Assembly: GCA_026393865.1 (NCBI GenBank) | Contig: JAPKZI010000044.1 | Coordinates: 571 to 64,570 of the forward strand | Source of the DNA: Candidatus Aminicenantes bacterium | Lineage (GTDB): Bacteria; Acidobacteriota; Aminicenantia; Aminicenantales; UBA4085 | Reading direction: 5' to 3' | Length of the DNA: 64,000 nt | Shown: positions 4,406 through 19,915 of the stretch, piece after piece | Layout of the letters: each line of letters begins with the position of its first letter | Numbering within the stretch: the stretch's first letter is position 1 | The notes under the pieces: generated by a model | Told to the model about the DNA's origin: nothing | What the model saw: the letters and a program-made list of their open reading frames with translations, nothing else | The model's database searches: none | Translations under genes and position numbers: made by a program

Positions 4406-5923
4406 GTGACGATGAGAACCGGCTTTGACAACGAGAAATACCTGAGAGAGCAGACGGCCGCGATCCTCGAGCGGGTCGGCAATTCGGAGGGCAAGCTTTA
4501 CCTGGAATTCGGGGGAAAGATCCTCTTCGACTTCCACGCGTCGCGCGTCCTGCCCGGCTTCGACCCCAATGTCAAGATGCGGCTGCTCCAGCTGCTCAAG
4601 GACAAGGCCGATATCCTTCTTTGCATCTACGCCGGCGATATCGAACGCAAGAAGGTCCGGGCGGATTTCGGCATCACCTACGACGTCGACGCGCTCAAGC
4701 TCATCGACGACTTGTCGGACTGGGGCATCGGGGTGCACGGCGTCGTGATCACCCGGTTCGACAACCAGCCCTCGGCCCGCGTTTTCAAGAACAAGCTCGA
4801 ACGCCGCGGGGTCAAAGTCTACACCCACAGCTTCACCAAGGGCTATCCGACGGATGTGGATCTCATCGTCAGCGACCTCGGCTACGGGGCCAACGAGTAT
4901 ATCGAGACCGAGAAACCGCTCGTCGTCGTGACCGGCCCGGGGCCGGGCAGCGGCAAGCTGGCCACGTGTCTGTCCCAGCTCTACCACGACTACCGGCGCG
5001 GCCATCGGTCGGGCTACGCCAAGTTCGAGACCTTTCCCATCTGGAACCTCCCTCTCAAACACCCGGTCAATGTGGCTTACGAAGCGGCCACGGCCGATAT
5101 TCAGGACTTCAACCTGGTCGATCCCTTCCACCTCGAAGCGTACGGGACGGTGTCCATCAACTACAACCGCGACGTCGAGATCTTCCCCGTGCTCCGGCGG
5201 ATCCTGGAAAAGATCACCGGCGCCGAATGCCGGTACAAATCGCCGACGGACATGGGCGTCAACCGGGCCGGCTTCGGAATTACCATCGACTCCGTCGTCC
5301 GCGAAGCGGCTCTCCAGGAGCTGGTCCGGCGGTACTTCCGCTATCACTGCGAATACGCCATGGGATTCGTGGACCGGAACACGGTCGAGCGGGCGGAACT
5401 TCTCATGCGCGAGATGAAGGTCGGCCCGGAATACAGGCAAGTCGTCGAACCGGCGCGGGAGGCGGCTGAAGAAGCCCGAGTCCGGGGCAAAGGCTATAAA
5501 GGGATCTTCTGCGGCGCCGCGATCCAGCTCCGCGACGCATCGATCGTCACCGGGGAGAACTCGCCCCTCATGCATGCCGGTTCCAGCCTGATCCTCAACG
5601 CGGTCAAAAAGCTGGCCGAGATCCCCGACAAGATCCCGCTTCTCTCATCCTCGACCATCGAGGCGATCGGCCATCTCAAGAAAGACATCCTGGGGGCCAA
5701 GGCGGCCAGTATGGATGTGGAAGAGATGCTGATCAGCCTCAGCCTCAACGCCTCGGCGAACCCGATGGCCGAGCTTGCCCTGGAGAAGCTCAAGGACCTT
5801 CGAGATTGCGAGGTCCACATGACTCACATTCCTACGCCGGGCGATGAGGCGGGGCTGAAACGGCTCGGTCTCAATCTGACGAGCGACCCGAATTTTTCGA
5901 GCAAAGACCTATTCGTGACCTGA
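4406..5923 (+). CDS. UPF0371 / DUF1846 family protein
   Basis: 'GFDNEKYLREQ...KLYLEFGGKILFDFHASRVLPGFDPN', 'VVVTGPGPGSGKLATCLSQLYHD', 'YAKFETFPIWNLPLKHPVNVAYEAATADI' are hallmark blocks of UPF0371. AGGAGA lies upstream. Start is GTG 4406 or ATG 4412. Confidence 0.8.
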   Translation: MTMRTGFDNEKYLREQTAAILERVGNSEGKLYLEFGGKILFDFHASRVLPGFDPNVKMRLLQLLKDKADILLCIYAGDIERKKVRADFGITYDVDALKLIDDLSDWGIGVHGVVITRFDNQPSARVFKNKLERRGVKVYTHSFTKGYPTDVDLIVSDLGYGANEYIETEKPLVVVTGPGPGSGKLATCLSQLYHDYRRGHRSGYAKFETFPIWNLPLKHPVNVAYEAATADIQDFNLVDPFHLEAYGTVSINYNRDVEIFPVLRRILEKITGAECRYKSPTDMGVNRAGFGITIDSVVREAALQELVRRYFRYHCEYAMGFVDRNTVERAELLMREMKVGPEYRQVVEPAREAAEEARVRGKGYKGIFCGAAIQLRDASIVTGENSPLMHAGSSLILNAVKKLAEIPDKIPLLSSSTIEAIGHLKKDILGAKAASMDVEEMLISLSLNASANPMAELALEKLKDLRDCEVHMTHIPTPGDEAGLKRLGLNLTSDPNFSSKDLFVT

Positions 5924-5944
5924 GCCGGGGCCGAGGAAGAAGCG

Positions 5945-6571
5945 ATGAAAAGCCTCTGGCGTTATCTCGGAGGGACCCTCTTTCACCCGGGCCGCACGTT
6001 CCAAGCGCTCCAGTCCGATCCGAAAATGGTCTCCAAGGGTTTCAAAGCGATCTTGCTCGTCGGGATCCTTTATACCCTGACTGTGGCCATGCTCGCCGCC
6101 GGCGGCGCCCTGATCACGGCTCCGGCCGTCATCGCCATCTCCGCGGAGAACTATTATTTCTTCGAGATGTTCTTCGCCCTGCCCGTCGTCGCGGCGGGTT
6201 GGATCCTGGCCGCGGGCTTCGCCCGGCTCTTGAGCAAATCGGGGAAGGGGAGGGGGAGCTTTGAGGGGACGTTGGCGGCGCTCGGTTTCGCCGTCACGGT
6301 CCCCCTGTTCGTGACCTGGATACCCGAGACGATTTTCGCCGCCTTGCTTCTTTTGGGCATGACCCAGGAGGAGTTCATGGATCTCATGGCCCAGCCGGGA
6401 TTCTTCCAGATCTTCGGATGGGCTTACCAGATCGCGGCTGTGGCCTGGCTGCTGGTCCTGATCATAATCGCGGTCGGCATCAGCCAGAAACTCAAATGGG
6501 GACGGGCGGTCCTCGTCGGCCTGCTGACCACGGTCCTTTTCATGACGGTCATGCTCATCTTCATCCGATGA
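5945..6571 (+). CDS. Yip1-like polytopic membrane protein
   Basis: 208 aa with about 5 hydrophobic helices. N-terminal 'LFHPGRTFQAL' is typical of Yip1-domain proteins. Its stop overlaps the next start (ATGA). Confidence 0.45.
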   Translation: MKSLWRYLGGTLFHPGRTFQALQSDPKMVSKGFKAILLVGILYTLTVAMLAAGGALITAPAVIAISAENYYFFEMFFALPVVAAGWILAAGFARLLSKSGKGRGSFEGTLAALGFAVTVPLFVTWIPETIFAALLLLGMTQEEFMDLMAQPGFFQIFGWAYQIAAVAWLLVLIIIAVGISQKLKWGRAVLVGLLTTVLFMTVMLIFIR

Positions 6572-10149: not shown

Positions 10150-10656
10150 GTGATCATGAAAAACGCCGCTTATTGGATTAAGACCCTCGAGCTCATCGAA
10201 CACCCCGAAGGGGGATATTTTCGCGAGATCTATCGGGCGGGGGAATCGATTCCCGCCGAAGCGCTTCCGTCCCGATACGGCGGCCCCAGAGCTTTCTCGA
10301 CGTCGATCTATTTTCTGCTTAAGTCCGGCCAGGTATCGCACCTCCACCGTCTCCGGTCCGATGAGATCTGGCATTTTTATGAGGGCGGTCCACTTCTGTT
10401 CCACGTGTTCGATGAAAGCTCCTATCGCCGGCTCCGCCTGGGCCGCGATCCCGGGGCCGGTGAGGTCTTGCAGGCCGTCCTTCCACGAGGCGTCCTGTTC
10501 GGGGCGGAGCCGCTGAGAGCCGGGTCGTTCGCCCTCTGCGGGTGCACGGTTGCGCCCGGCTTCGATTTCGCCGACTTCGAGTTCGGCCGCGGCGAGGATC
10601 TTCTGGCCCGATATCCCCGATACAAGGCGCTGATCGGCCGCCTGACCGTCCTCTGA
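10150..10656 (+). CDS. Cupin superfamily protein (DUF985-like)
   Basis: 'LELIEHPEGGYFREIYR...STSIYFLL...SHLHRLRSDEIWHFYEG' matches the DUF985 cupin pattern. Start is GTG 10150 or ATG 10156. Confidence 0.65.
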   Translation: MIMKNAAYWIKTLELIEHPEGGYFREIYRAGESIPAEALPSRYGGPRAFSTSIYFLLKSGQVSHLHRLRSDEIWHFYEGGPLLFHVFDESSYRRLRLGRDPGAGEVLQAVLPRGVLFGAEPLRAGSFALCGCTVAPGFDFADFEFGRGEDLLARYPRYKALIGRLTVL

Positions 10657-10657
10657 C

Positions 10658-10686
10658 TTGAAAAAATCGCCCCGTTTCCATATAGT
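10658..10686 (+). promoter_or_regulatory. sigma70-like promoter for the flavodiiron gene
   Basis: TTGAAA (10658-10663), 17-nt spacer, TATAGT (10681-10686). Confidence 0.4.
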
Positions 10687-10728
10687 ATTTTTTAGATTAT
10701 TTCCACGGACCGACGAAAGGAAAAACCA

Positions 10729-11907
10729 ATGAGACCACGCCAGATCAAGGACCAGATATACGCGGTCGGGGCCGTCGACTGGGACCGCCGGCTATTCGAT
10801 GGATTGATCCCGCTTCCGGACGGAACGAGCTACAATTCGTATCTCGTCCGGGGGAGCGAAAAGACGGCCCTGCTCGATACGGTCGACCCCTCGAAACGCG
10901 ATATCTTTTTCGAGAATCTCCGGGAGGTCGCCTCCATCGATTACCTGATCGCCCATCACGGCGAGCAGGACCATTCGGGCCTGATCCCGGAGATTCTGGC
11001 CAAATATCCCCAGGCCAAGGTCGTCTGCTCGCCCAAGGCCAAGGGAATCCTCATGGACCACCTCGGCTTGTCCGGAGACAGGATCCTGACCGTCGACGAC
11101 GGCCAAACGCTCTCGCTGGGCGACCGGACCTTCGAGTTCGTCCATACGCCGTGGGTCCATTGGCCCGAGACCATGGGCACGTATCTCCGCGAGGACAAGG
11201 TCTTTTTCAGCTGTGATTTCTTCGGCTCTCACATCGCCCAGTCGGATCTTTTCGTGGCCGATGAGGCTCCCGTTTATGAAGCGGCCAAACGCTACTTCGC
11301 CGAGATCATGATGCCGTTCCGGACGGCGATCCAGAAGAACCTGGAGCGGCTGAAGACGCTCGAGATCGGGATCATCGCCCCGTCGCACGGGCCTCTCTAC
11401 GGCCGGCCGGAATTCATCCTCGAAGCCTACCGCGAATGGACCTCGGACAGGTTGAGGAACGAAGCCGTCGTGGCCTACATCTCCATGCACGGCAGCACGG
11501 CTTCGATGGTCGATCATTTCGTCGCCGCCCTGGCCGAACGCGGCGTCCGGGTCCACCAGTTCAACCTGGCCGAAACCGATATCGGCAAACTGGCCGTCGC
11601 CCTCGTGGACGCGGCGACAATCGTCCTGGGGACGCCGGCGGTCCATATCGGACCTCATCCCCGGATCGCTCATGCCGTCTTCCTGGCGAACGCTTTGCGG
11701 CCGAAGCTGAAATTCGCCTCGATCATCGGCTCCTACGGCTGGGGTCACAAGATCGTCGAGCAGATCGCGGCCATGATCCCCAACCTCAAGGTCGAGGTCC
11801 TGGCGCCCGTGATCTGCCGCGGAAAGCCCCGCGAAGGGGACTTCGCCGCTCTGGAAAAGCTGGCCGAGACGATCGCCCGGAAACACGCGGAGCTCGGGTT
11901 GAAATAG
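10729..11907 (+). CDS. Flavodiiron protein (FprA-type; metallo-beta-lactamase-like plus flavodoxin-like domains)
   Basis: 'HHGEQDHSG' di-iron ligand motif, 'FVHTPWVHWPETM', and a C-terminal flavodoxin-like 'VVAYISMHGSTASMV'. RBS AAAGGAAAAA. Confidence 0.8.
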   Translation: MRPRQIKDQIYAVGAVDWDRRLFDGLIPLPDGTSYNSYLVRGSEKTALLDTVDPSKRDIFFENLREVASIDYLIAHHGEQDHSGLIPEILAKYPQAKVVCSPKAKGILMDHLGLSGDRILTVDDGQTLSLGDRTFEFVHTPWVHWPETMGTYLREDKVFFSCDFFGSHIAQSDLFVADEAPVYEAAKRYFAEIMMPFRTAIQKNLERLKTLEIGIIAPSHGPLYGRPEFILEAYREWTSDRLRNEAVVAYISMHGSTASMVDHFVAALAERGVRVHQFNLAETDIGKLAVALVDAATIVLGTPAVHIGPHPRIAHAVFLANALRPKLKFASIIGSYGWGHKIVEQIAAMIPNLKVEVLAPVICRGKPREGDFAALEKLAETIARKHAELGLK

Positions 11908-11919
11908 GGGGAGGATTTT

Positions 11920-13032
11920 ATGCGCATCGACCGGATCGAGATCCGCCATACGAAAATGGAGCTGGTGACCTCGTTCGAGACGTCCATGGGCATCGAGACC
12001 CAGGAGGAACACATCATGGTTCGGGTCGACGGCGACGGGGTGACGGGCTGGGGAGAGTGCGTCGTCGAAGAGTTGCCGCTCTATTCTTCCGAAACGGTCC
12101 AGACCGCCTGGTCTGTCCTGAGGGATTGTCTGATCCCGGCCGTCCTGGGCAAGACCATCTCTAAGGTCGAGGAGGCCATCGCTCTGTGGACGAAGTTCAG
12201 GGGCCATCGCATGGCCAAGGCGGGGCTGGAATCAGCCCTCTGGGACGCGCTGGCCAAGGCGAAAGGCGTTTCGCTGGCCAAAATGCTGGGCGGCACGCGC
12301 GACCGGGTGGACGTGGGGGTCAGCGTCGGCCTTCAGGCGTCTCCGGAAGCCTTGGTCAGGAAAGTGGGAGCGCATCTGGACGAAGGATACCGCCGGATCA
12401 AGATCAAGATCGCGCCCGGCCGCGACGTCGAACTGGTCAAGGCACTCCGCAAGGAATATCCGAAGGTCCTCCTCCAGGTGGACGCCAATTCCGCCTATGA
12501 GCTGAGCGACATCGATGTTTTCCGGGCGATGGACGACGCCGGCCTGCTCTTGATCGAACAGCCCTTGAGCTATGAGGACATCTACGATCATTCCAAATTG
12601 CAGCGCGAGCTCAAAACGGCCATCTGTCTCGACGAGAGCATTCACAGCCTGGCCGACGCGCGCGCGGCGCTGGAATTGAACAGCTGCCGCGTGATCAACA
12701 TCAAGCCCGGCCGCGTCGGGGGCTTCACGGAATCGGCGGCCATTCATGATTATTGCGCTTCGAAGAAGATCCCCGTTTGGCACGGCGGGATGCTGGAATC
12801 CGGGATCGGGCGCGCCGGGAACGTCGCCCTGGCCTCGCTGCCGAACTTCACCCTCCCCGGCGACATCTCGGCCAGCCGGCGCTATTACCGGGAAGACATC
12901 GTCGAGCCCGAATTCGTCCTCAATCCCGATTCGACCTTGACCGTGCCGACCGGACCGGGGATCGGAGTCACGGTGTTGATGGACAGGCTGGACCGGGTCA
13001 CGGTCCGCCGCGAGGAGTTCAGGCATCGATGA
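11920..13032 (+). CDS. o-Succinylbenzoate synthase / N-acylamino-acid racemase family enzyme (enolase superfamily)
   Basis: KxK 'RRIKIKIAPG', metal ligands in 'LQVDAN', 'LIEQP', 'ICLDES', and second catalytic Lys in 'INIKPGRVGG'. No other men genes nearby, so menC is not asserted. Confidence 0.7.
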   Translation: MRIDRIEIRHTKMELVTSFETSMGIETQEEHIMVRVDGDGVTGWGECVVEELPLYSSETVQTAWSVLRDCLIPAVLGKTISKVEEAIALWTKFRGHRMAKAGLESALWDALAKAKGVSLAKMLGGTRDRVDVGVSVGLQASPEALVRKVGAHLDEGYRRIKIKIAPGRDVELVKALRKEYPKVLLQVDANSAYELSDIDVFRAMDDAGLLLIEQPLSYEDIYDHSKLQRELKTAICLDESIHSLADARAALELNSCRVINIKPGRVGGFTESAAIHDYCASKKIPVWHGGMLESGIGRAGNVALASLPNFTLPGDISASRRYYREDIVEPEFVLNPDSTLTVPTGPGIGVTVLMDRLDRVTVRREEFRHR

Positions 13033-14173
13033 TCCGGCCGTCGCCAAAGGCCAGGAGGGTGTCCAGAACCTCCGCCGGCTGTAGCGAGGTGCCGTCCCGC
13101 GGCGAATCGATAATGCGATAATCAAAGAAGGCGTTGTCGCCTGCATACCAGGGCGGCCCCGCGGGGCGGCCCGCGGCGGTCCTTTTTTCGAGCTCTTTGA
13201 GGTTGAGACGCGTCCCCAGACCCTTTAAGTGGATTCCGCGGTCCGGGTCCACGCCGAGAATAAAGCGGTCCTCCCCGAACTTCGTCATTAGAAAGCCGAA
13301 TCCCCGGCGGTCCGGAGGATGCTCGCGGTCGCGGCGGGCCCATTCCTTGAGCAGGAAACTGCGCGGATTGGCCACGGTCAAGCCGTCCACGTCCACGACG
13401 GACCGGCCATCGACGGCGGCCGGGGCCCCGGGCATTGCCCGGGGGTCCATTTCCGCCGTACTCGCCTGTGGATACAAATCACGGGCGAGTGGCGAGCCGA
13501 AGGCTCGTCCCTTGACCGCCGGAAGCCGGAGGCGCAGGATCCGGCCCCGATCGAGGTCGGCCAGGTAGCTCGAGTAATCCCCCTCCACCTTGTGGACGGC
13601 CCGCTCGTAGCGGTCGATGCCGGCGAAGAGCTTTCGGTTCTCGATGATATCGTCGCCTTCCGCCGCGCGGGTATAAAGAAACCGCATGAATCTTAGGCCT
13701 TCATCGGTCCTCTGCCGGTTGATCTCGTCCTCGCTCTTTTTTGATCCCGAAAAAAGAGCCCGGAGAACGGCATAGGGCGTCGCGGCGAGGTCGAGAGAGT
13801 TGGGCAGGGCCGCCGAATCCACCATTTTGGCATAAGCCGCGATCCTTTCCATGGCCGGATCGACGCGGCCTGTCTCCAGCAGCTTCAAGGTGAGAAAGAT
13901 CGAGGCCAGGGCGTCGAAGTCCGGAAGCCGATGGGTGATGAATGTCAGCGGGGGGGCATCCGCTCCGCCCGTCCCCGCCTGCGATGGGCGAATATGGTCG
14001 AGAACGAGACGAGGGTGTTTAATGATGAGCGAAGTCGTGCATTCAGGCTCGGCGTCGGGGTGATGATGGTCGATGACGCCGGGGACGGTCTTCATCCCCA
14101 CGTCCAGGACGATCGTCCCGGGCGCGGGCTCGAAGCGCTCGCCGTAGTTGACGAATTTGAAGGATATGTCCAT
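13019..14173 (-). CDS. Uncharacterised protein with DHH/MYG1-like metal-binding motifs
   Basis: ATG 14173 lies 10 nt after the mutY stop. 'IVLDVGMKTVPGVIDHHHP' (res ~22-40) and 'FITHRLPDFDALASIFL' (res ~78-94). The rest has no motif I recognise. Confidence 0.55.
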   Translation of the reverse strand: MDISFKFVNYGERFEPAPGTIVLDVGMKTVPGVIDHHHPDAEPECTTSLIIKHPRLVLDHIRPSQAGTGGADAPPLTFITHRLPDFDALASIFLTLKLLETGRVDPAMERIAAYAKMVDSAALPNSLDLAATPYAVLRALFSGSKKSEDEINRQRTDEGLRFMRFLYTRAAEGDDIIENRKLFAGIDRYERAVHKVEGDYSSYLADLDRGRILRLRLPAVKGRAFGSPLARDLYPQASTAEMDPRAMPGAPAAVDGRSVVDVDGLTVANPRSFLLKEWARRDREHPPDRRGFGFLMTKFGEDRFILGVDPDRGIHLKGLGTRLNLKELEKRTAAGRPAGPPWYAGDNAFFDYRIIDSPRDGTSLQPAEVLDTLLAFGDGRIIDA

Positions 14174-14183
14174 GAGGGATCAT

Positions 14184-15209
14184 TCACAAGAGGGACACAG
14201 TATTGTGTCCTTTTAAAGATCTATTTTCAAGGAATCGAATGATCTTGACGCTGCCCGAAGGGAACGGATATTTCTGGAGATCCTTCGATGCGATCCATTT
14301 CCGCCGCCCCGCCTTCAATTCCGGTTCGCCTTTAAGCCGGCAAGCGAACGCGTGGAGGTCGACCTGGAACTGAGTATAGGAATGATCGACCTTGACCAGG
14401 AATTTCGCCCGCGAGACTTCGGTTCCGAGCTCTTCCTTGATCTCGCGGGCGAGGGCCTTCTCCCGGCTCTCCCCGCGCCTCATCTTGCCTCCCGGGAATT
14501 CCCACAGCCCGGCCAGGAGTCCGGCGGCCGGTCTTTTTTGAATCAAGATCCGTCCGTCCTTTTCGATGATGCCGACGACGGCGGTGATATGCCGGGTACT
14601 TCTTTTTTTCGGCTTTGGGATGATCTCCTGCTCGCCGGCATCGTAAGCCCGGCAGGCGGGCTGGACCGGACAAAGGAGGCAGAGCGGGTTCCGGGATCGG
14701 CAGATGAGCGCCCCCAGTTCCATGAGGGCTTGATTGAAATCTCCCGGGGAACGGAGCGGGATCTCGTCATTAAGCCGCTCGAGGATCGTCTTGTCCGGCC
14801 GGTTGTCCGCTTGTCCGTGAATCCGCATGACCCGCATCATGACCCTCCGAACGTTCGCGTCCAGGACGGGATACGGCTGGTTAAAAGCCAGGCTGAGGAC
14901 GGCCGCGGTGGTATAGGGCCCGAAGCCGGGGACGGTGAGCAATGTCTCCGGGTCGGCTGGAATTCGGCCGCGGTGATCGCGGACGAAGATCTTGGCGGCG
15001 GCATGAAGGTTCCGGGCCCGCTGATAGTAGCCCAGCCCCTGCCAGGCGCGAAGGACTTTTTGAAAAGGAGCCCGGGCCAATCCCTCGAGATCCGGGAAAA
15101 GCGTCAGCCACTTTTCATAATAAGGGATGACGGCGCCGACCGTCGTCTGCTGGAGCATGATCTCCGAGATCCAGATCCGGTATGGGTCCCGTGTTCGACG
15201 CCAGGGCAA
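14184..15209 (-). CDS. mutY: A/G-specific adenine DNA glycosylase MutY with C-terminal NUDIX-like domain
   Basis: 'PYRIWISEIMLQQTTV', FeS cluster loop 'CRSRNPLCLLCPVQPAC', C-terminal 'GLWEFPGGKMRRGESREKALAREIKEELG'. The first canonical start is TTG 15209, but conserved N-terminal sequence continues upstream (see findings). Confidence 0.85.
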   Translation of the reverse strand: MPWRRTRDPYRIWISEIMLQQTTVGAVIPYYEKWLTLFPDLEGLARAPFQKVLRAWQGLGYYQRARNLHAAAKIFVRDHRGRIPADPETLLTVPGFGPYTTAAVLSLAFNQPYPVLDANVRRVMMRVMRIHGQADNRPDKTILERLNDEIPLRSPGDFNQALMELGALICRSRNPLCLLCPVQPACRAYDAGEQEIIPKPKKRSTRHITAVVGIIEKDGRILIQKRPAAGLLAGLWEFPGGKMRRGESREKALAREIKEELGTEVSRAKFLVKVDHSYTQFQVDLHAFACRLKGEPELKAGRRKWIASKDLQKYPFPSGSVKIIRFLENRSLKGHNTVSLL

Positions 15210-15276: not shown

Positions 15277-16662
15277 CTATTTTTTTTCAGGTTCTTTCTT
15301 CTCCGGCTCAGGGGCCTTCCAATCCTTGGCCTCCTTGGGAAATTCGGTCAGGAAGGCCGAATCGACCTTGAAGAAATAATCGAGCTTGGCGTTCTTGACC
15401 ACGGCCTGCTTTTTGTCCTTGTCCTCCTTGCCGACGAGGACTGAGAACGATTTTTCCACTGGTTTTTCCCCGGCTTCCTTGGTCCAGATCGTCACCTCGG
15501 CCTGAGGCTTGTCGAGGCCGTATTCGGCCGGGCTTTTAGGCGCGTCGATATATTCGATCGCCTCGAGGCTCTCGATCTTGCGGACGAAGGTGTCGACCTT
15601 GGAGGCGTCGGCCTCTTCTTTTTGAGCGGCGTCGGAATACCATTTGTCGTTCGGGGCCTTGGTCAGCGTCAGGTTCAGCCCGCCCTTTTTGAGGGCGACC
15701 TTGCTCGCCTGCCAGGTATTGAATGGGGCGACCTTGTTCTCCCGGAGATCGGCCGGCTTCTTGTCGAGATCGGCCGAGAGATCGATCTCGGGAACGATGA
15801 TCTTCGTCGATTGCGAGGTCGTGACGTAAGTCTTGTCGTCGGCTTTATGGAAGGCGAAGGTCAGCTCCTTATTGTCCTTCGGCAGAGACAGGACGACCTG
15901 ATATTCGGGCTTGTCCAGCCCTGATTTTTTCAAGTCCTCGGCTTTCTTGATCTCGGCCGTAAATTCCTTGGCCCTCTGGTTGGACAGGGAATCGAGAAGC
16001 GTCGTGATCTTGCCGTCCTTGGCCCGCGCCTTGAACGGAGCCTGGAAGAACCACTCGCCGTCCTTTTTACGCGCTTCCCATGAAGCCTCTTTGGCCTGGA
16101 GCTTAATGCCGGCCACGTCCGCGGTCTCGAATTTGAAGATGTCCTTCTGGCGGAAATCGAACAGCTTTTTCTCGAGCGGCGTCTTGAGCGTGCTCGGGAG
16201 AAGGACGACCCGCTTGTCGCCCTCCTTTTGGGCGTAGAATGTGTTGCCGAGCGGATTTTCCTGGCCGATCAAGACCTTGACGGGGTTGTCCTGGCCTTTA
16301 ACCCACAGCGAGACCTCTTTCTGGGGGATCTGGTATTTCTTGAGGTCGGCGTTCTCCTTCTCCACGACCCGCTCGATCTTCAGATCGGCGAAGCCGTCGA
16401 CGAACTGACCGACTTCGGTGTTGTCCGCCTTGACCTCCAGGGGTTCAAGGATCATCCAGTCGCCTTGATCGTCCTTTTTGAAGGTCAGTGTCTCGCTCTC
16501 CTTCTTGAACGTGATCTTCTGGACGTCGGCGGAGACGAGCGTCACGAATTTCTCTTCGGGGCCGGCGGCCTTGTCGGCTGGTCCCTTCTTGTCCAGGAAC
16601 AGGATGAAGGCCAAAAGGGCGATGAACGCACCCAAGAGCATGAACGTGTTTTTGATCTTCAC
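15277..16662 (-). CDS. DUF4340 domain protein (accessory to GldG-type ABC systems), N-terminal TM anchor
   Basis: GTG 16662 preceded by GGAGGAG and overlapping the gldG-like stop (GTGA). 'VKIKNTFMLLGAFIALLAFILF' anchor. Lys/Glu-rich beta-rich repeats typical of DUF4340. The upstream half of the 803-aa track ORF is out-of-frame overlap with gldG. Confidence 0.65.
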   Translation of the reverse strand: MKIKNTFMLLGAFIALLAFILFLDKKGPADKAAGPEEKFVTLVSADVQKITFKKESETLTFKKDDQGDWMILEPLEVKADNTEVGQFVDGFADLKIERVVEKENADLKKYQIPQKEVSLWVKGQDNPVKVLIGQENPLGNTFYAQKEGDKRVVLLPSTLKTPLEKKLFDFRQKDIFKFETADVAGIKLQAKEASWEARKKDGEWFFQAPFKARAKDGKITTLLDSLSNQRAKEFTAEIKKAEDLKKSGLDKPEYQVVLSLPKDNKELTFAFHKADDKTYVTTSQSTKIIVPEIDLSADLDKKPADLRENKVAPFNTWQASKVALKKGGLNLTLTKAPNDKWYSDAAQKEEADASKVDTFVRKIESLEAIEYIDAPKSPAEYGLDKPQAEVTIWTKEAGEKPVEKSFSVLVGKEDKDKKQAVVKNAKLDYFFKVDSAFLTEFPKEAKDWKAPEPEKKEPEKK

Positions 16663-18221
16663 AGCGCCCTCCTCCGGACCCAGATGGAGATGCCGACGGC
16701 CAGCACCAGGAGCGGCAGGATGATGACCGAGACCCAGAAGATGAGTTTGCCCTGCGACGGGGTGAGCTGGACGGCCCGCGGATTGGACGTCCTGGGCTGG
16801 ATCGAGATGAGATCGGATTCTTCGGTCAGCCAGTTGACCGTGTTGAGAAAGAAGTTTCCGTTTCCGGATAAGTTGTAATAGCGGTTCGTGGCCATGTCCG
16901 AGTCGCCGAACACGGCCATCCGGCCTTCCTTGGAGGCCGTCCCGGCCGCGGCGCCGGCATCGGTCTTCGGCTTGATCGTCGCCACGGCCGCGACTGACAA
17001 GGGTCCGAGCTTGTCCTTGGCCTTGTCGAAAGAGATCTCCTTGAGGGTCATCTTCGCCTTGAGCTTGAAGTCCCGCTTCGACCAGGAATTGGAGCTCGTC
17101 CGGCCGAGGACCTGAGAGGTGGAGACGGCCTCGGGCTTGGGGTCGATCGTCTCGACGAGCCGGGCGAAGGGGAAGAACGTGGCGTAGCGGAAGGCCTTGG
17201 TGATCTCGTGGGATTCGTACTCGTTCAAGGTCGGGATGAAATAGTCGCCGCCGATCAGACGCGACATGGAATCGACGATGATGTCGTTCTCCAGGCGGAA
17301 GCCGAACTTGGCCAGGTAAGGGACAAGACCAGGCGCGGTCTGGGGATCGACCATGAAGAACACGCGGCCGCCCTCCCGAAGATATGTGTCGATCGTCTCC
17401 AGCTCGTTCGGCAGCAGGTCTTTCACCGGACCCGGGATGACCAACAGGGCGCAGTCCTTGGGAAAGTTCTCCGAGAGCGCCAGCGGCTGTTTCTTGACCT
17501 CGTAGCCGAGCTTGCCCAGCTCGTCCTTGGCGAAGGAGAAGCTGTTCTCGTCGGTGACCTCGGTGCTGTGTTCGCCGTGTCCTTCGAGAAAATAGATGAC
17601 CTTCTTCTTCTCGCGGGTCACCTTGATGAGGGCGTTGGTCACGTCCTCTTCGGTCGAAGCGGTAATGCGGTTCTCCTTGTCGCCGCATTCGAAGATCGTC
17701 GTGCCGTCCTGGGTGATGTCGTAGCGCTTGATCATGGCCGGGTTCTTGTCGGGATCGATGAACTCGGTTTTGATCTTGGCCGAATGGTAGGCGTAGATCT
17801 TGAGGAGATCCTCCATCCTCACCCGGCCCATGTTCCCCTCGCGGAAGAAGCCCTTGACGGTGACGTCGTTCTTCAGGGCCTGGACGACCTTGATCGACTG
17901 GTCGGACAGGGAATGGAGCTTGGATTCGGTGAAATCGAAGCGATGATGATGCCGGGCGAAGAAGATGTTGACGAGCGTCAGGAGCCCGAGGACGAGGACG
18001 ACGACGAGAAGGAGGTTTCCGGAGTAGAGGAAGGAGCGTCGGCTGAATCCTTTTTTGAGCTTCCCCAGGTTGAGGCCGATGTAAGCGCTGACGGCGGCGA
18101 TGCCGAGGAGGGCGAGCCCCAGGGCGATGAACTTTTTAAAAGGCCAGACCCGGAAAGCCACGACGGCCAGAAAGATCAGGCCCACGCCGATGGTGTTCAG
18201 GTTCTTTTTGATTTTGTCCAT
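16659..18221 (-). CDS. GldG-like ABC-transporter auxiliary protein
   Basis: 520 aa with N- and C-terminal TM anchors. 'VIYFLEGHGEHS', 'LLVIPGPVKDLLPNELETIDTYLREGGRVFFMVDP' are characteristic of the GldG family. Confidence 0.75.
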   Translation of the reverse strand: MDKIKKNLNTIGVGLIFLAVVAFRVWPFKKFIALGLALLGIAAVSAYIGLNLGKLKKGFSRRSFLYSGNLLLVVVLVLGLLTLVNIFFARHHHRFDFTESKLHSLSDQSIKVVQALKNDVTVKGFFREGNMGRVRMEDLLKIYAYHSAKIKTEFIDPDKNPAMIKRYDITQDGTTIFECGDKENRITASTEEDVTNALIKVTREKKKVIYFLEGHGEHSTEVTDENSFSFAKDELGKLGYEVKKQPLALSENFPKDCALLVIPGPVKDLLPNELETIDTYLREGGRVFFMVDPQTAPGLVPYLAKFGFRLENDIIVDSMSRLIGGDYFIPTLNEYESHEITKAFRYATFFPFARLVETIDPKPEAVSTSQVLGRTSSNSWSKRDFKLKAKMTLKEISFDKAKDKLGPLSVAAVATIKPKTDAGAAAGTASKEGRMAVFGDSDMATNRYYNLSGNGNFFLNTVNWLTEESDLISIQPRTSNPRAVQLTPSQGKLIFWVSVIILPLLVLAVGISIWVRRRAL

Positions 18222-18224
18222 GAC

Positions 18225-18992
18225 TTATCTCCACCGTCGGGATTGGATCACGGAGTGGGTCAGGAAAAGGCCGAAGAAAGCGAAGCTGACGTAATAGACC
18301 ACGTCGGTCGTGTCCAGGATGCCTTGGGTCATGTTGTCGAAGTGCTGGAGGAAGGAGACGTAGTTGAGGATGTCCTTCCAGGCCCCGGCGGCCGAGTTCG
18401 AGGCCCAGTTGAGGACCCAGAAAAGAAGCAGAGCGCCGAAGGTCAGGATGGCCGACACGATCTGATTTTCCGTGAGCGAAGAGAAGAAGATGCCGATGGC
18501 GATGAACGCCGCGCCCAGCAGAAACAGACCCAGGTAGCCGTTGAGGATGGGGGCGACTTCGGGATTGCCGTAGGCGAAGGAGAAGATCGAGAGCAGACAG
18601 GTCAGGGCGAGCATGGCCAGGAGGACGAGGAGAGAGGCGACGAACTTCCCCAGGATGATCTGGTTGACCGAGATGGGCGAAGTGTAGAGGAGTTCCTCCG
18701 TGCCGATCTTCTTCTCTTCGGAGAACAGGCGCATGGTCAGCAGGGGAAGCATGAGGAGGAGGATGATGCTCATGTTGTTGAAAAGCGGCTGGTAGACCAT
18801 CTGGTTGATGTTGATTTGCGAATAATAATACTGGTTCTGGGCCATTTGCATAGCCTGGGCGTTGAACCACATCAGGATGTTGTAGTAGAAGAAGCCGACC
18901 AGGACCAGGAAGACCATGATGACGACATAGGCGATGGGCGAAGTGAAATAGGTCCGGAGCTCTTTTTTGGCGACGACCCAGACGTTCTTCAT
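18225..18992 (-). CDS. ABC-2 type permease (GldF-like)
   Basis: 'AKKELRTYFTSPIAYVVI' N-terminus, 6 TM segments. ATGA overlap with the upstream ATPase gene. Confidence 0.75.
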   Translation of the reverse strand: MKNVWVVAKKELRTYFTSPIAYVVIMVFLVLVGFFYYNILMWFNAQAMQMAQNQYYYSQININQMVYQPLFNNMSIILLLMLPLLTMRLFSEEKKIGTEELLYTSPISVNQIILGKFVASLLVLLAMLALTCLLSIFSFAYGNPEVAPILNGYLGLFLLGAAFIAIGIFFSSLTENQIVSAILTFGALLLFWVLNWASNSAAGAWKDILNYVSFLQHFDNMTQGILDTTDVVYYVSFAFFGLFLTHSVIQSRRWR

Positions 18993-19915
18993 TGTTCCGT
19001 GCCTCCCGAGACGATCTTGAGGTAAAGGTCCTCGATGTTCATGGCCATGGGTCGCATCTCAAGCAGTCCGAACCGCTTTTCGACGAGGAGCCGGACGATG
19101 TCGTCCCGCAGGTCCAATCCGGGTTTCCATTCGACCTTGAGCTCGCCGTCCGCGGCTTCGACCTTGTCGACGCCGGCGATCTTGCGGATCTCGGCCGCGG
19201 CCTCCGGGCCGTCCTTCCTGACTTTGATGAACAGGCCTTCTTTATGGCGGATCGAGGCGGTCAGGTCCTCAAGCGAGCCCGAGGCCATCAGCCGGCCCTC
19301 GTTGATGATGACGACGCCGTCGCAGGTCTGGGTGACCTCGGGCAGGATGTGCGTCGAGAGGATGATCGTGTGCTCGCCCTTGAGCGATTTGATGAGGCTG
19401 CGGATCTCGATGATCTGGGCCGGATCGAGGCCGATCGTCGGCTCGTCCAGGATGAGGACGAGCGGATCGTGAACGAGGGCCTGGGCGATGCCGACCCGCT
19501 GCTTGTAGCCGCGGGAGATGTTCTTGATGAGGCGGCCCTTGACCGACTCCAGCCCGGTGGTCTTGACGACCTTGGCCACGGACTCCGTCCGCCGGCCCGC
19601 CGGGACCTTCTTGATGGCGGCGACAAAGCCCAGGTATTCGGTCACGGTCATATCGGGATAAAGAGGGAGGGTCTCGGGCAGATAGCCGAGAATCTTCTTG
19701 ACCTCGTTGGGCTGCTCGAAGACATCGAGGTTCCCGACCGAGGCCCGGCCTTCCGTGGCCGGCAGGAAGCCGGTCAGAATGCGCATGGTGGTGGTCTTGC
19801 CGGCCGCGTTGGGACCGAGAAGTCCCCAGATCTTGCCTTTTTCGACCTTGAAGCTCAGGTCGCGGACGGCCGTCAGATCACCGTATTTCTTGGTGAGATG
19901 GTCAACGGCAATCAT
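18989..19915 (-). CDS. ABC transporter ATP-binding protein (GldA-like)
   Basis: Walker A 'GPNAAGKTT', signature 'ISRGYKQR', Walker B 'LILDEPT'. Strong RBS GGAGG. Confidence 0.9.
   Translation of the reverse strand: MIAVDHLTKKYGDLTAVRDLSFKVEKGKIWGLLGPNAAGKTTTMRILTGFLPATEGRASVGNLDVFEQPNEVKKILGYLPETLPLYPDMTVTEYLGFVAAIKKVPAGRRTESVAKVVKTTGLESVKGRLIKNISRGYKQRVGIAQALVHDPLVLILDEPTIGLDPAQIIEIRSLIKSLKGEHTIILSTHILPEVTQTCDGVVIINEGRLMASGSLEDLTASIRHKEGLFIKVRKDGPEAAAEIRKIAGVDKVEAADGELKVEWKPGLDLRDDIVRLLVEKRFGLLEMRPMAMNIEDLYLKIVSGGTEQ

Follow-up and report, generated by a model that had tools for sequence, protein, structure and literature searches.

The DHH superfamily includes enzymes with nanoRNase, pAp phosphatase, exopolyphosphatase and pyrophosphatase activities, and some of its members are DNA exonucleases, such as RecJ, which has a role in base excision repair and removes 5'-deoxyribose phosphate (5'-dRP). 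Here, we analyzed a window of 64,000 nucleotides (the whole stretch of DNA under study) from Candidatus Aminicenantes bacterium (assembly GCA_026393865.1, contig JAPKZI010000044.1, positions 571 to 64,570), in which the gene at 13019-14173 on the minus strand encodes a protein of 384 aa (P0001) with DHH-type motifs in the order II-III-I. The protein belongs to an unnamed family, for which we use the working name X. On balance, we read X as a motif-permuted DHH-type phosphodiesterase for nucleotide-derived molecules, which in Aminicenantes is a stand-alone protein and not an obligate partner of MutY, whose gene lies directly upstream. The described system that X resembles most in its partners is found in type III CRISPR, where corA lies next to, or is fused to, the gene for the DHH-family phosphodiesterase NrN; NrN specifically degrades the messenger SAM-AMP (S-adenosylmethionine-AMP), and immunity needs CorA as well as NrN (Chi et al., Nature 2023, PMC10600005).

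The N-terminal part of the target protein contains two blocks of putative metal ligands. Residues 23-39, LDVGMKTVPGVIDHHHP (14057-14107, minus strand, as for all parts of the target gene below), hold candidate DHH motif II (D24) and motif III (D35-H36-H37), and residues 79-94, ITHRLPDFDALASIFL (13892-13939), hold DHH motif I (H81, D85, D87) on a strand-helix unit. An earlier note on this DNA had described a DHH-like block standing ahead of a motif-I-like block, about 45 residues apart, and this was borne out: LDVG..IDHHH (D24, D35-H36-H37) lies about 45 residues ahead of THRLPDFDALAS (H81, D85, D87), with the DHH triad (35-37) 44-50 residues before the three motif I ligands. The H/D-x3-D-x-D pattern of motif I comes after a beta-strand and is followed by a helix (strand 76-81 and helix 86-101 in the AlphaFold2 model). 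The IDHHH of motif III (D35, H36, H37) aligns with the 'viDHH' of the PDB entry 9r7o and of GdpP, and with the 'DHH' of RecJ. A further conserved aspartate, D119, in the VDS of residues 118-120 (13814-13822), closes helix 106-119; judged from its conservation, it is a possible fourth metal or substrate ligand and a candidate for motif IV. Along the chain, the order is D24 (motif II-like), DHH 35-37, H81/D85/D87 and D119, which departs from the canonical I-II-III-IV order. The rest of the protein includes a C-terminal alpha/beta domain (residues about 211-384, 13019-13543) with the family motifs LKGLG, WY.G and YRIIDSP.DGT, and with a conserved GLG-helix and DPWYDGR motif. This domain may be a DHHA1-like substrate-binding domain, a putative assignment given that the GGGH motif is absent.

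To describe the conservation of these residues, we compared alignments of different depth. D24, D35, H36, H37, H81, D85, D87, D119 and S120 are invariant among 33 Aminicenantes homologues (alignment A1). Down to 26% identity (alignments A2 and A6), D35, H37, H81, P84 and D87 still do not vary at all, and conservation is at least 90% at D24, D85 and D119. The putative metal-ligand residues are also retained in 59 multidomain relatives. Since the ligand residues are invariant in the close homologues and near-invariant to 26% identity, the motifs are not due to chance.

Sequence searches pointed repeatedly to DHH enzymes. The Pfam DHH model (PF01368) matched 29 of 37 members below threshold, always at motif I (THxxPDxDA) and with a best E-value of 2.3e-5; it was the sole recurrent Pfam family, no other matching more than two of the 37. 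Two homologues carry a precomputed PF01368 match. When profile A2 was compared with all PDB sequences, 9 of the 14 weak matches were DHH enzymes, namely the 'DHH family' protein 9r7o, GdpP, family II pyrophosphatases and NrnA-like proteins. In the top matches, two stretches are aligned, and their order is reversed: chain positions 14-39 (motif I) correspond to family positions 67-92, and chain positions 107-121 (the DHH motif) to family positions 34-48 ('GviDhH'). With the deeper profile A6, all three PDB matches were DHH enzymes. Nothing reached E <0.01 in the PDB by single-sequence or profile search.

AlphaFold2 models were obtained for the target and for P0141, a 32%-identical homologue from a different clade, with mean predicted local distance difference test (pLDDT) values of 88.7 and 95.8, respectively. 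The earlier note had called for a Foldseek search with a predicted structure, and it placed DHH phosphodiesterases on top. For the target model, the GdpP catalytic domain ranked first in the PDB (E 0.01, prob 0.63). For the P0141 model, NrN with SAM-AMP or SAH-AMP took ranks 1-3 (PDB 9lqa, 9lqb and 9lqc; E 0.014-0.022, prob 0.66-0.80, TMt 0.34-0.37). Among the viral models of BFVD, P0141 found matches with prob 0.72-0.99; a 'DHH family phosphohydrolase', a phage 'phosphohydrolase' and an 'exopolyphosphatase' were among them. In the Foldseek searches, alignments to two-domain DHH/DHHA1 enzymes cover the whole length.

Several results weigh against a relationship to DHH enzymes. The Foldseek template modeling (TM) scores were low, only 0.25-0.38, with root-mean-square deviations of 9-13 A, so global fold identity with DHH enzymes is not shown; a long helical segment (about residues 100-210) is also atypical of DHH domains. 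No match passes any curated threshold: the Pfam DHH score is 13.3 bits for the target and 25 bits for the best native member, against a gathering cut-off of 28.1. Rearranging four members into the canonical order left their Pfam scores unchanged (13.9 vs 13.3, 23.8 vs 25, 15.4 vs 15.8 and 17.0 vs 16.6 bits). When the X alignment was compared by hhalign with shallow NrnA-like and RecJ-like alignments from related genomes, the probability was below 10% and the matches were of motif length; three permuted forms of the alignment gave no gain over the native one, the templates being shallow. The 37 members show neither a DHHA1 or DHHA2 Pfam match nor a phosphate-binding loop motif of the GGGH type.

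One explanation for these results is that X is no relative of DHH enzymes: its fold would be independent, its D/H-rich metal motifs would have arisen by convergence, and its hydrolase activity would be unrelated. The motif-length sequence matches, the hhalign probabilities, the TM-scores that do not exceed 0.38 and the lack of any gain on permutation would all suit it. We nevertheless consider it improbable, because three independent types of search (Pfam, PDB profile and Foldseek) converge on DHH enzymes, no other family recurs, and the association with CorA described below mirrors that of the known DHH enzyme NrN. On that convergence, we prefer the reading that X has a DHH-superfamily catalytic core with motif order II-III-I and a putative ligand cluster, which is the best supported and quite probable, if not established. 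The proposal of the earlier note that the protein is a divergent or permuted DHH-type enzyme is thus in keeping with all three search types, none of them strong on its own, whereas the similarity to MYG1/UPF0160 that it had suggested could not be detected. The block 'DVG(G/N)...DHH(Q/H)' of X resembles the MYG1/UPF0160 motif, but the order of motifs differs, and the PF03690 profile gave no match at E <=0.5 in the 37 members or in the rearranged sequences.

In the arrangement that we propose, the motif I unit (the H-x3-D-x-D strand-helix) comes after the motif II (D) and motif III (DHH) units, and the conserved alpha/beta C-terminal domain follows this DHH-like core, as in two-domain DHH/DHHA1 enzymes. 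Judged from its residues, X would most likely be a divalent-metal-dependent (bimetal) phosphodiesterase, whose C-terminal domain would bind a nucleotide-derived substrate. Here X comes close to the DHH/DHHA1 phosphodiesterases of the GdpP/PggH/NrnA type, which act on cyclic di-AMP (c-di-AMP), pApA, pGpG or nanoRNA: the two-domain layout is of similar size, X matches them at motif I and at the DHH motif, the Foldseek search with the target ranks GdpP first, and X has a GGDEF neighbor in one Aminicenantes clade. Unlike them, X stays below the Pfam thresholds, lacks a DHHA1 match and the GGGH motif, and has the swapped motif order; moreover, the related genomes already encode a canonical NrnA-like protein. 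RecJ would likewise share the DHH superfamily with X by the present reading; however, X lacks RecJ-specific domains, and related genomes have a RecJ-like gene of their own.

We then asked how large the family is and how it is annotated. A word-seeded search gave 483 relatives, the best 120 of which are 53-98% identical to the target; a source is named for few of these 120, and those few are 'hypothetical proteins' of Aminicenantes without a Pfam domain. HMMER, run exhaustively against 1.84 billion cluster representatives, returned 764 matches at E <=1e-3 and 337 at E <=1e-10, the 764 being cluster representatives at 50% identity. All homologues, close (483) and library-wide (764), are labeled 'hypothetical'. 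No Pfam, NCBIfam, PADLOC or PHROGs model was found for the X domain, PADLOC matches being confined to fused partner domains. The X domain is also not described in the literature on conflict systems and CRISPR accessory proteins that we searched, where the domain-less 'CorA-associated cluster 96' of a survey of CRISPR accessory genes (PMC6546367) was not compared with X; the eLife 2020 paper on conflict systems does not mention DHH. These results indicate that the target is a genuine gene and that the protein family to which it belongs is widespread and undescribed. If X is indeed a DHH-type enzyme, a large family without a Pfam, NCBIfam, PADLOC or PHROG model would extend the DHH phosphodiesterases by a rearranged catalytic core, and most Aminicenantales genomes would gain a testable enzyme prediction in place of a 'hypothetical protein'.

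The wider family is rich in fusions. Among the 59 multidomain homologues, X is joined to Ser/Thr kinases (16), class III nucleotide cyclases (14, some with TPRs), TIR (7) and TCAD9 (6) domains, and once each to HD-CE, caspase and CofD. The layouts include TPR-cyclase-X, X-kinase, kinase-X-TIR, HD-CE-X-TIR, TCAD9-X and X-TIR. In six X-CorA-like fusions, the CorA-like part is a C-terminal module; the CRISPR-type 'CorA-like' models of PADLOC are matched with E 1e-5 to 1e-11 by five of these proteins and weakly (E 0.0085) by the sixth. At four further loci (L129, L083, L141 and L142), an upstream CorA-like gene overlaps the start of a stand-alone X gene; the four upstream genes are mutually homologous, and the two that were tested match PADLOC CorA at E 1e-13 to 1e-16.

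Two other kinds of upstream gene also overlap an X start. At L143 (4273-6131), a gene for a small RelA/SpoT-type synthetase overlaps the X start and adjoins a protein with reverse transcriptase and AEP-TOTE parts (RT/AEP-TOTE) and Cas1, and an HD_4 gene lies downstream. By its appearance, this is an uncharacterized alarmone-type signaling module near CRISPR adaptation genes. At L131 (1-7065), an overlapping string consists of a NACHT-TPR protein (1640 aa), a CCA-type nucleotidyltransferase (PolyA_pol+HD) and X; PqqD and radical-SAM genes come after X there, and a Cas6-like gene is nearby. RT-Cas1, Cas1, Cas2 or Cas6 occurs within 6 kb in 4 of 12 places outside Aminicenantes.

Because the partners make nucleotide signals (cyclic nucleotide monophosphate (cNMP) cyclase, TIR, RelA/SpoT, CCA-type nucleotidyltransferase and GGDEF) or are CorA-like proteins, a messenger or its linear product is the most likely class of substrate. 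By hydrolyzing a nucleotide-derived second messenger, or the linear dinucleotide formed from it, X would reset or tune signaling; by analogy, we infer that it would clear a messenger as NrN clears SAM-AMP beside CRISPR-associated CorA. NrN is the top Foldseek match of the family model P0141, the DHH triad is found in both proteins, and X too stands beside CorA-like membrane proteins or is fused to them, in many cases close to RT-Cas1, Cas2 or Cas6. The two differ in that no sequence similarity is detectable and the X family profile fails to retrieve NrN from the PDB. X also measures about 340 aa, compared with 251 aa for NrN, has a long helical insert and follows the order II-III-I, compared with I-II-III in NrN. 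Given these differences in sequence, size and motif order, X is probably not a member of the NrN family.

The assignment of a substrate to the target itself meets several objections. It is drawn from guilt by association in distant relatives: CorA adjacency or fusion was found in distant members (four adjacent pairs and six fusions) and not for the target gene. The target has no CorA, cyclase or TIR partner, its neighbors being mutY and an MR_MLE gene, and its own genome (86% complete) gave no CorA-like match. For the Aminicenantes proteins, a reasonable first guess at the substrate is a dinucleotide related to cyclic di-GMP (c-di-GMP), from the GGDEF neighbor in one clade.

We also wondered whether X might have a wider role as a circularly permuted DHH branch, namely as a dedicated signal-clearing or signal-processing phosphodiesterase of many, as yet uncharacterized nucleotide-signaling immune modules, one lineage of X having been domesticated in Aminicenantes as a stand-alone enzyme of the chromosome and being co-expressed with mutY or a GGDEF protein. 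The modules meant are CorA-like channels in and outside CRISPR loci, cNMP cyclase-TPR, TIR, RelA/SpoT, CCA-type nucleotidyltransferase and TCAD9 ternary systems. We put this forward tentatively, as a speculative extension. Were it true, it would point to messengers not yet described and to a new enzyme family for turning them off. NrN with SAM-AMP is the only characterized precedent, and it revealed a new class of messenger; the substrates of X may likewise include second messengers still to be discovered.

A plainer view is that X is an ordinary DHH housekeeping or toxic nuclease or phosphatase (a nanoRNase, pAp phosphatase, exopolyphosphatase or pyrophosphatase, or a nucleic-acid-degrading effector when fused) with no specificity for signals. 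The DHH superfamily spans all these activities, and the phage models matched by Foldseek are named 'exopolyphosphatase' and 'phosphohydrolase'. Against this, an NrnA-like enzyme is already present in every related genome, a stand-alone toxic nuclease without a visible regulator would be hard to keep as a vertically inherited gene, and the repeated pairing with signal-making enzymes and CorA fits the 'signal turnover' pattern of NrN. We therefore regard an ordinary DHH enzyme as unlikely, even though the terminal enzymatic domains of conflict-system proteins are often effectors (PMC7159879). The fusions to kinases, cyclases and TIR, at positions typical of sensor domains, could also suit a domain on a DHH-like frame that lacks catalysis and binds nucleotides or acts as a scaffold, related to the enzymes as Cdc45 is to RecJ and serving as a sensor in multidomain proteins. 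Loss of catalysis, however, would not predict that the putative metal ligands stay invariant, or almost so, in over 200 divergent members, fusions included, and we find such a domain highly doubtful.

To place the Aminicenantes proteins in the family, a maximum-likelihood tree of 237 domains was built, with a midpoint root for drawing only. The Aminicenantes X sequences group together in a single clade (SH-aLRT 99), which lies within a group that contains cyclase-X, X-kinase and TCAD9-X proteins. In Aminicenantes, X is a stand-alone protein whose single-copy gene is inherited vertically but dispensable and comes last in a gldA/F/G-like-DUF4340-(mutY) string.

The place of the target next to mutY agrees with what the earlier note had described. 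The target is the last gene of a minus-strand string, and its ATG (14173-14171) begins after an intergenic gap of 10 nt (atgatccctc) past the mutY TGA (14186-14184). The mutY gene (14184-15209, minus strand) has Pfam and NCBIfam matches (HhH-GPD and NUDIX_4); against TIGR01084 it scores 279.6 bits, just below the cut-off of 286.5, with an alignment that begins at profile position 18. The called mutY ORF begins at TTG, and the true mutY start and the 67-nt gap to the DUF4340 gene are uncertain. A scan of the gap found no terminator-like hairpin between mutY and the target, and the two genes are probably co-transcribed in this genome. A consensus scan found two sigma-70-like sites, compared with 0.4 expected; one of them, TTGAAA-17-CACAAT (14202-14230, minus strand), is a consensus match that lies within the mutY 3' end, just before the target start.

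From this arrangement, the earlier note had proposed that X acts with MutY, which would make it a repair nuclease that processes DNA ends or abasic-site products after MutY, as RecJ removes 5'-dRP. To examine the linkage, we compared 80 Aminicenantes loci from different species. In about 50 of them, mutY is the immediate upstream gene on the same strand, with gaps mostly <=30 nt or small overlaps, which together with the 10-nt gap free of terminator-like sites and the DNA exonucleases known among DHH enzymes speaks for a joint function. In the Saccharicenans group, however, 9-11 loci have a GAF-GGDEF gene in place of mutY (confirmed by Pfam, the GGDEF motif being degenerate to GEYEF); it lies 45-91 nt upstream of the target orthologue at L024, L047, L063, L070, L071, L074, L076, L078 and L080 (about 4850-5950). 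In five loci nothing fills the mutY slot and DUF4340 is directly ahead of the target, and in five a divergent Ser/Thr kinase gene is found. None of the 12 contexts of homologues outside the Aminicenantes lineage contains mutY. One context (L084) has divergently oriented uvrB and uvrC nearby.

The distribution of the gene tells against a repair partnership as well. The target gene turned up in 87 of the 151 genomes sampled from the order (61 of the 105 of high quality) and was not found in the other 64, which include whole genera, such as g13 (present in 0 of 19). Other genera always have it, such as g203 (9 of 9). Within the same class it occurs in 8 of about 29 sampled genomes, three families giving 0 of 15, and phylum-wide in 9 of 301. 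All five genomes lacking the target gene that were checked keep mutY, at 57-63% identity. In a genome of the same family as the window genome (G379:C2:983883-984874), the orthologue is broken up, with three fragments and a stop codon, which looks like pseudogenization and is consistent with a dispensable gene.

RecJ is also already available: a RecJ-like protein (about 565 aa) is encoded in 20 of the 21 closest genomes, and an NrnA-like DHH protein in all 21. The own genome has a RecJ-like fragment at a contig end. The idea that X stands in for a missing RecJ or NrnA was rejected on these counts.

Taken together, the adjacency is confined to part of one lineage, mutY is replaced or lost in sister clades, and mutY persists without X; a partnership is therefore not supported, and a MutY-coupled nuclease is very unlikely. 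X is a dispensable gene linked to mutY by inherited synteny and no obligate partner of MutY, and the adjacency should not be read as a repair function.

The string upstream of the target (15277-19915, minus strand) comprises genes for an ABC ATPase (18989-19915), an ABC-2 permease (18225-18992), a GldG-like protein (ABC_transp_aux, 16659-18221) and DUF4340 (about 15277-16650). In most Aminicenantes loci, this synteny upstream of the target is conserved, whether mutY is there or not. On the other side, a convergent MR_MLE gene (enolase-superfamily racemase/lactonizing enzyme-like, 11920-13032, plus strand) overlaps the target 3' end by 14 nt. The convergent downstream neighbors differ by species: 14 loci have a gene with an ATP-grasp motif (GGGGEG) and no Pfam match, and 8 loci have an ODP/flavodoxin gene. 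Past the MR_MLE gene of the window, at 10150-11907 on the plus strand, are a Cupin_5 (DUF985) gene and a gene of the ODP-type metallo-beta-lactamase/flavodoxin (flavodiiron-like) kind; both reappear near the target in several other Aminicenantes loci.

Finally, the target protein is longer than its orthologues, most of which have 335-376 aa compared with 384 aa. Of its residues, 34 stem from an in-frame 102-bp insertion (residues about 220-253; 13415-13516, minus strand) with GTC on both flanks, which alignment shows to be missing from the orthologues, including that of a same-genus genome. The insertion falls within the C-terminal domain, in a loop that joins two of its strands; residues 226-255 have pLDDT <50 and are predicted to be disordered. 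Since neither the reading frame nor any motif is disrupted, the protein probably remains functional with the insertion, which is a tolerated 34-aa loop derived from a mobile repeat. The inserted sequence is a copy of a hairpin-rich interspersed repeat, present once in the window and in at least 40 copies at 91-97% identity across the own genome (e.g. L134-L140), with 108 candidates at first look. Its RNA folds into three hairpins (-62 kcal/mol, z -4.6), and its character resembles that of miniature inverted-repeat transposable elements or repetitive extragenic palindromes (MITE/REP-like).

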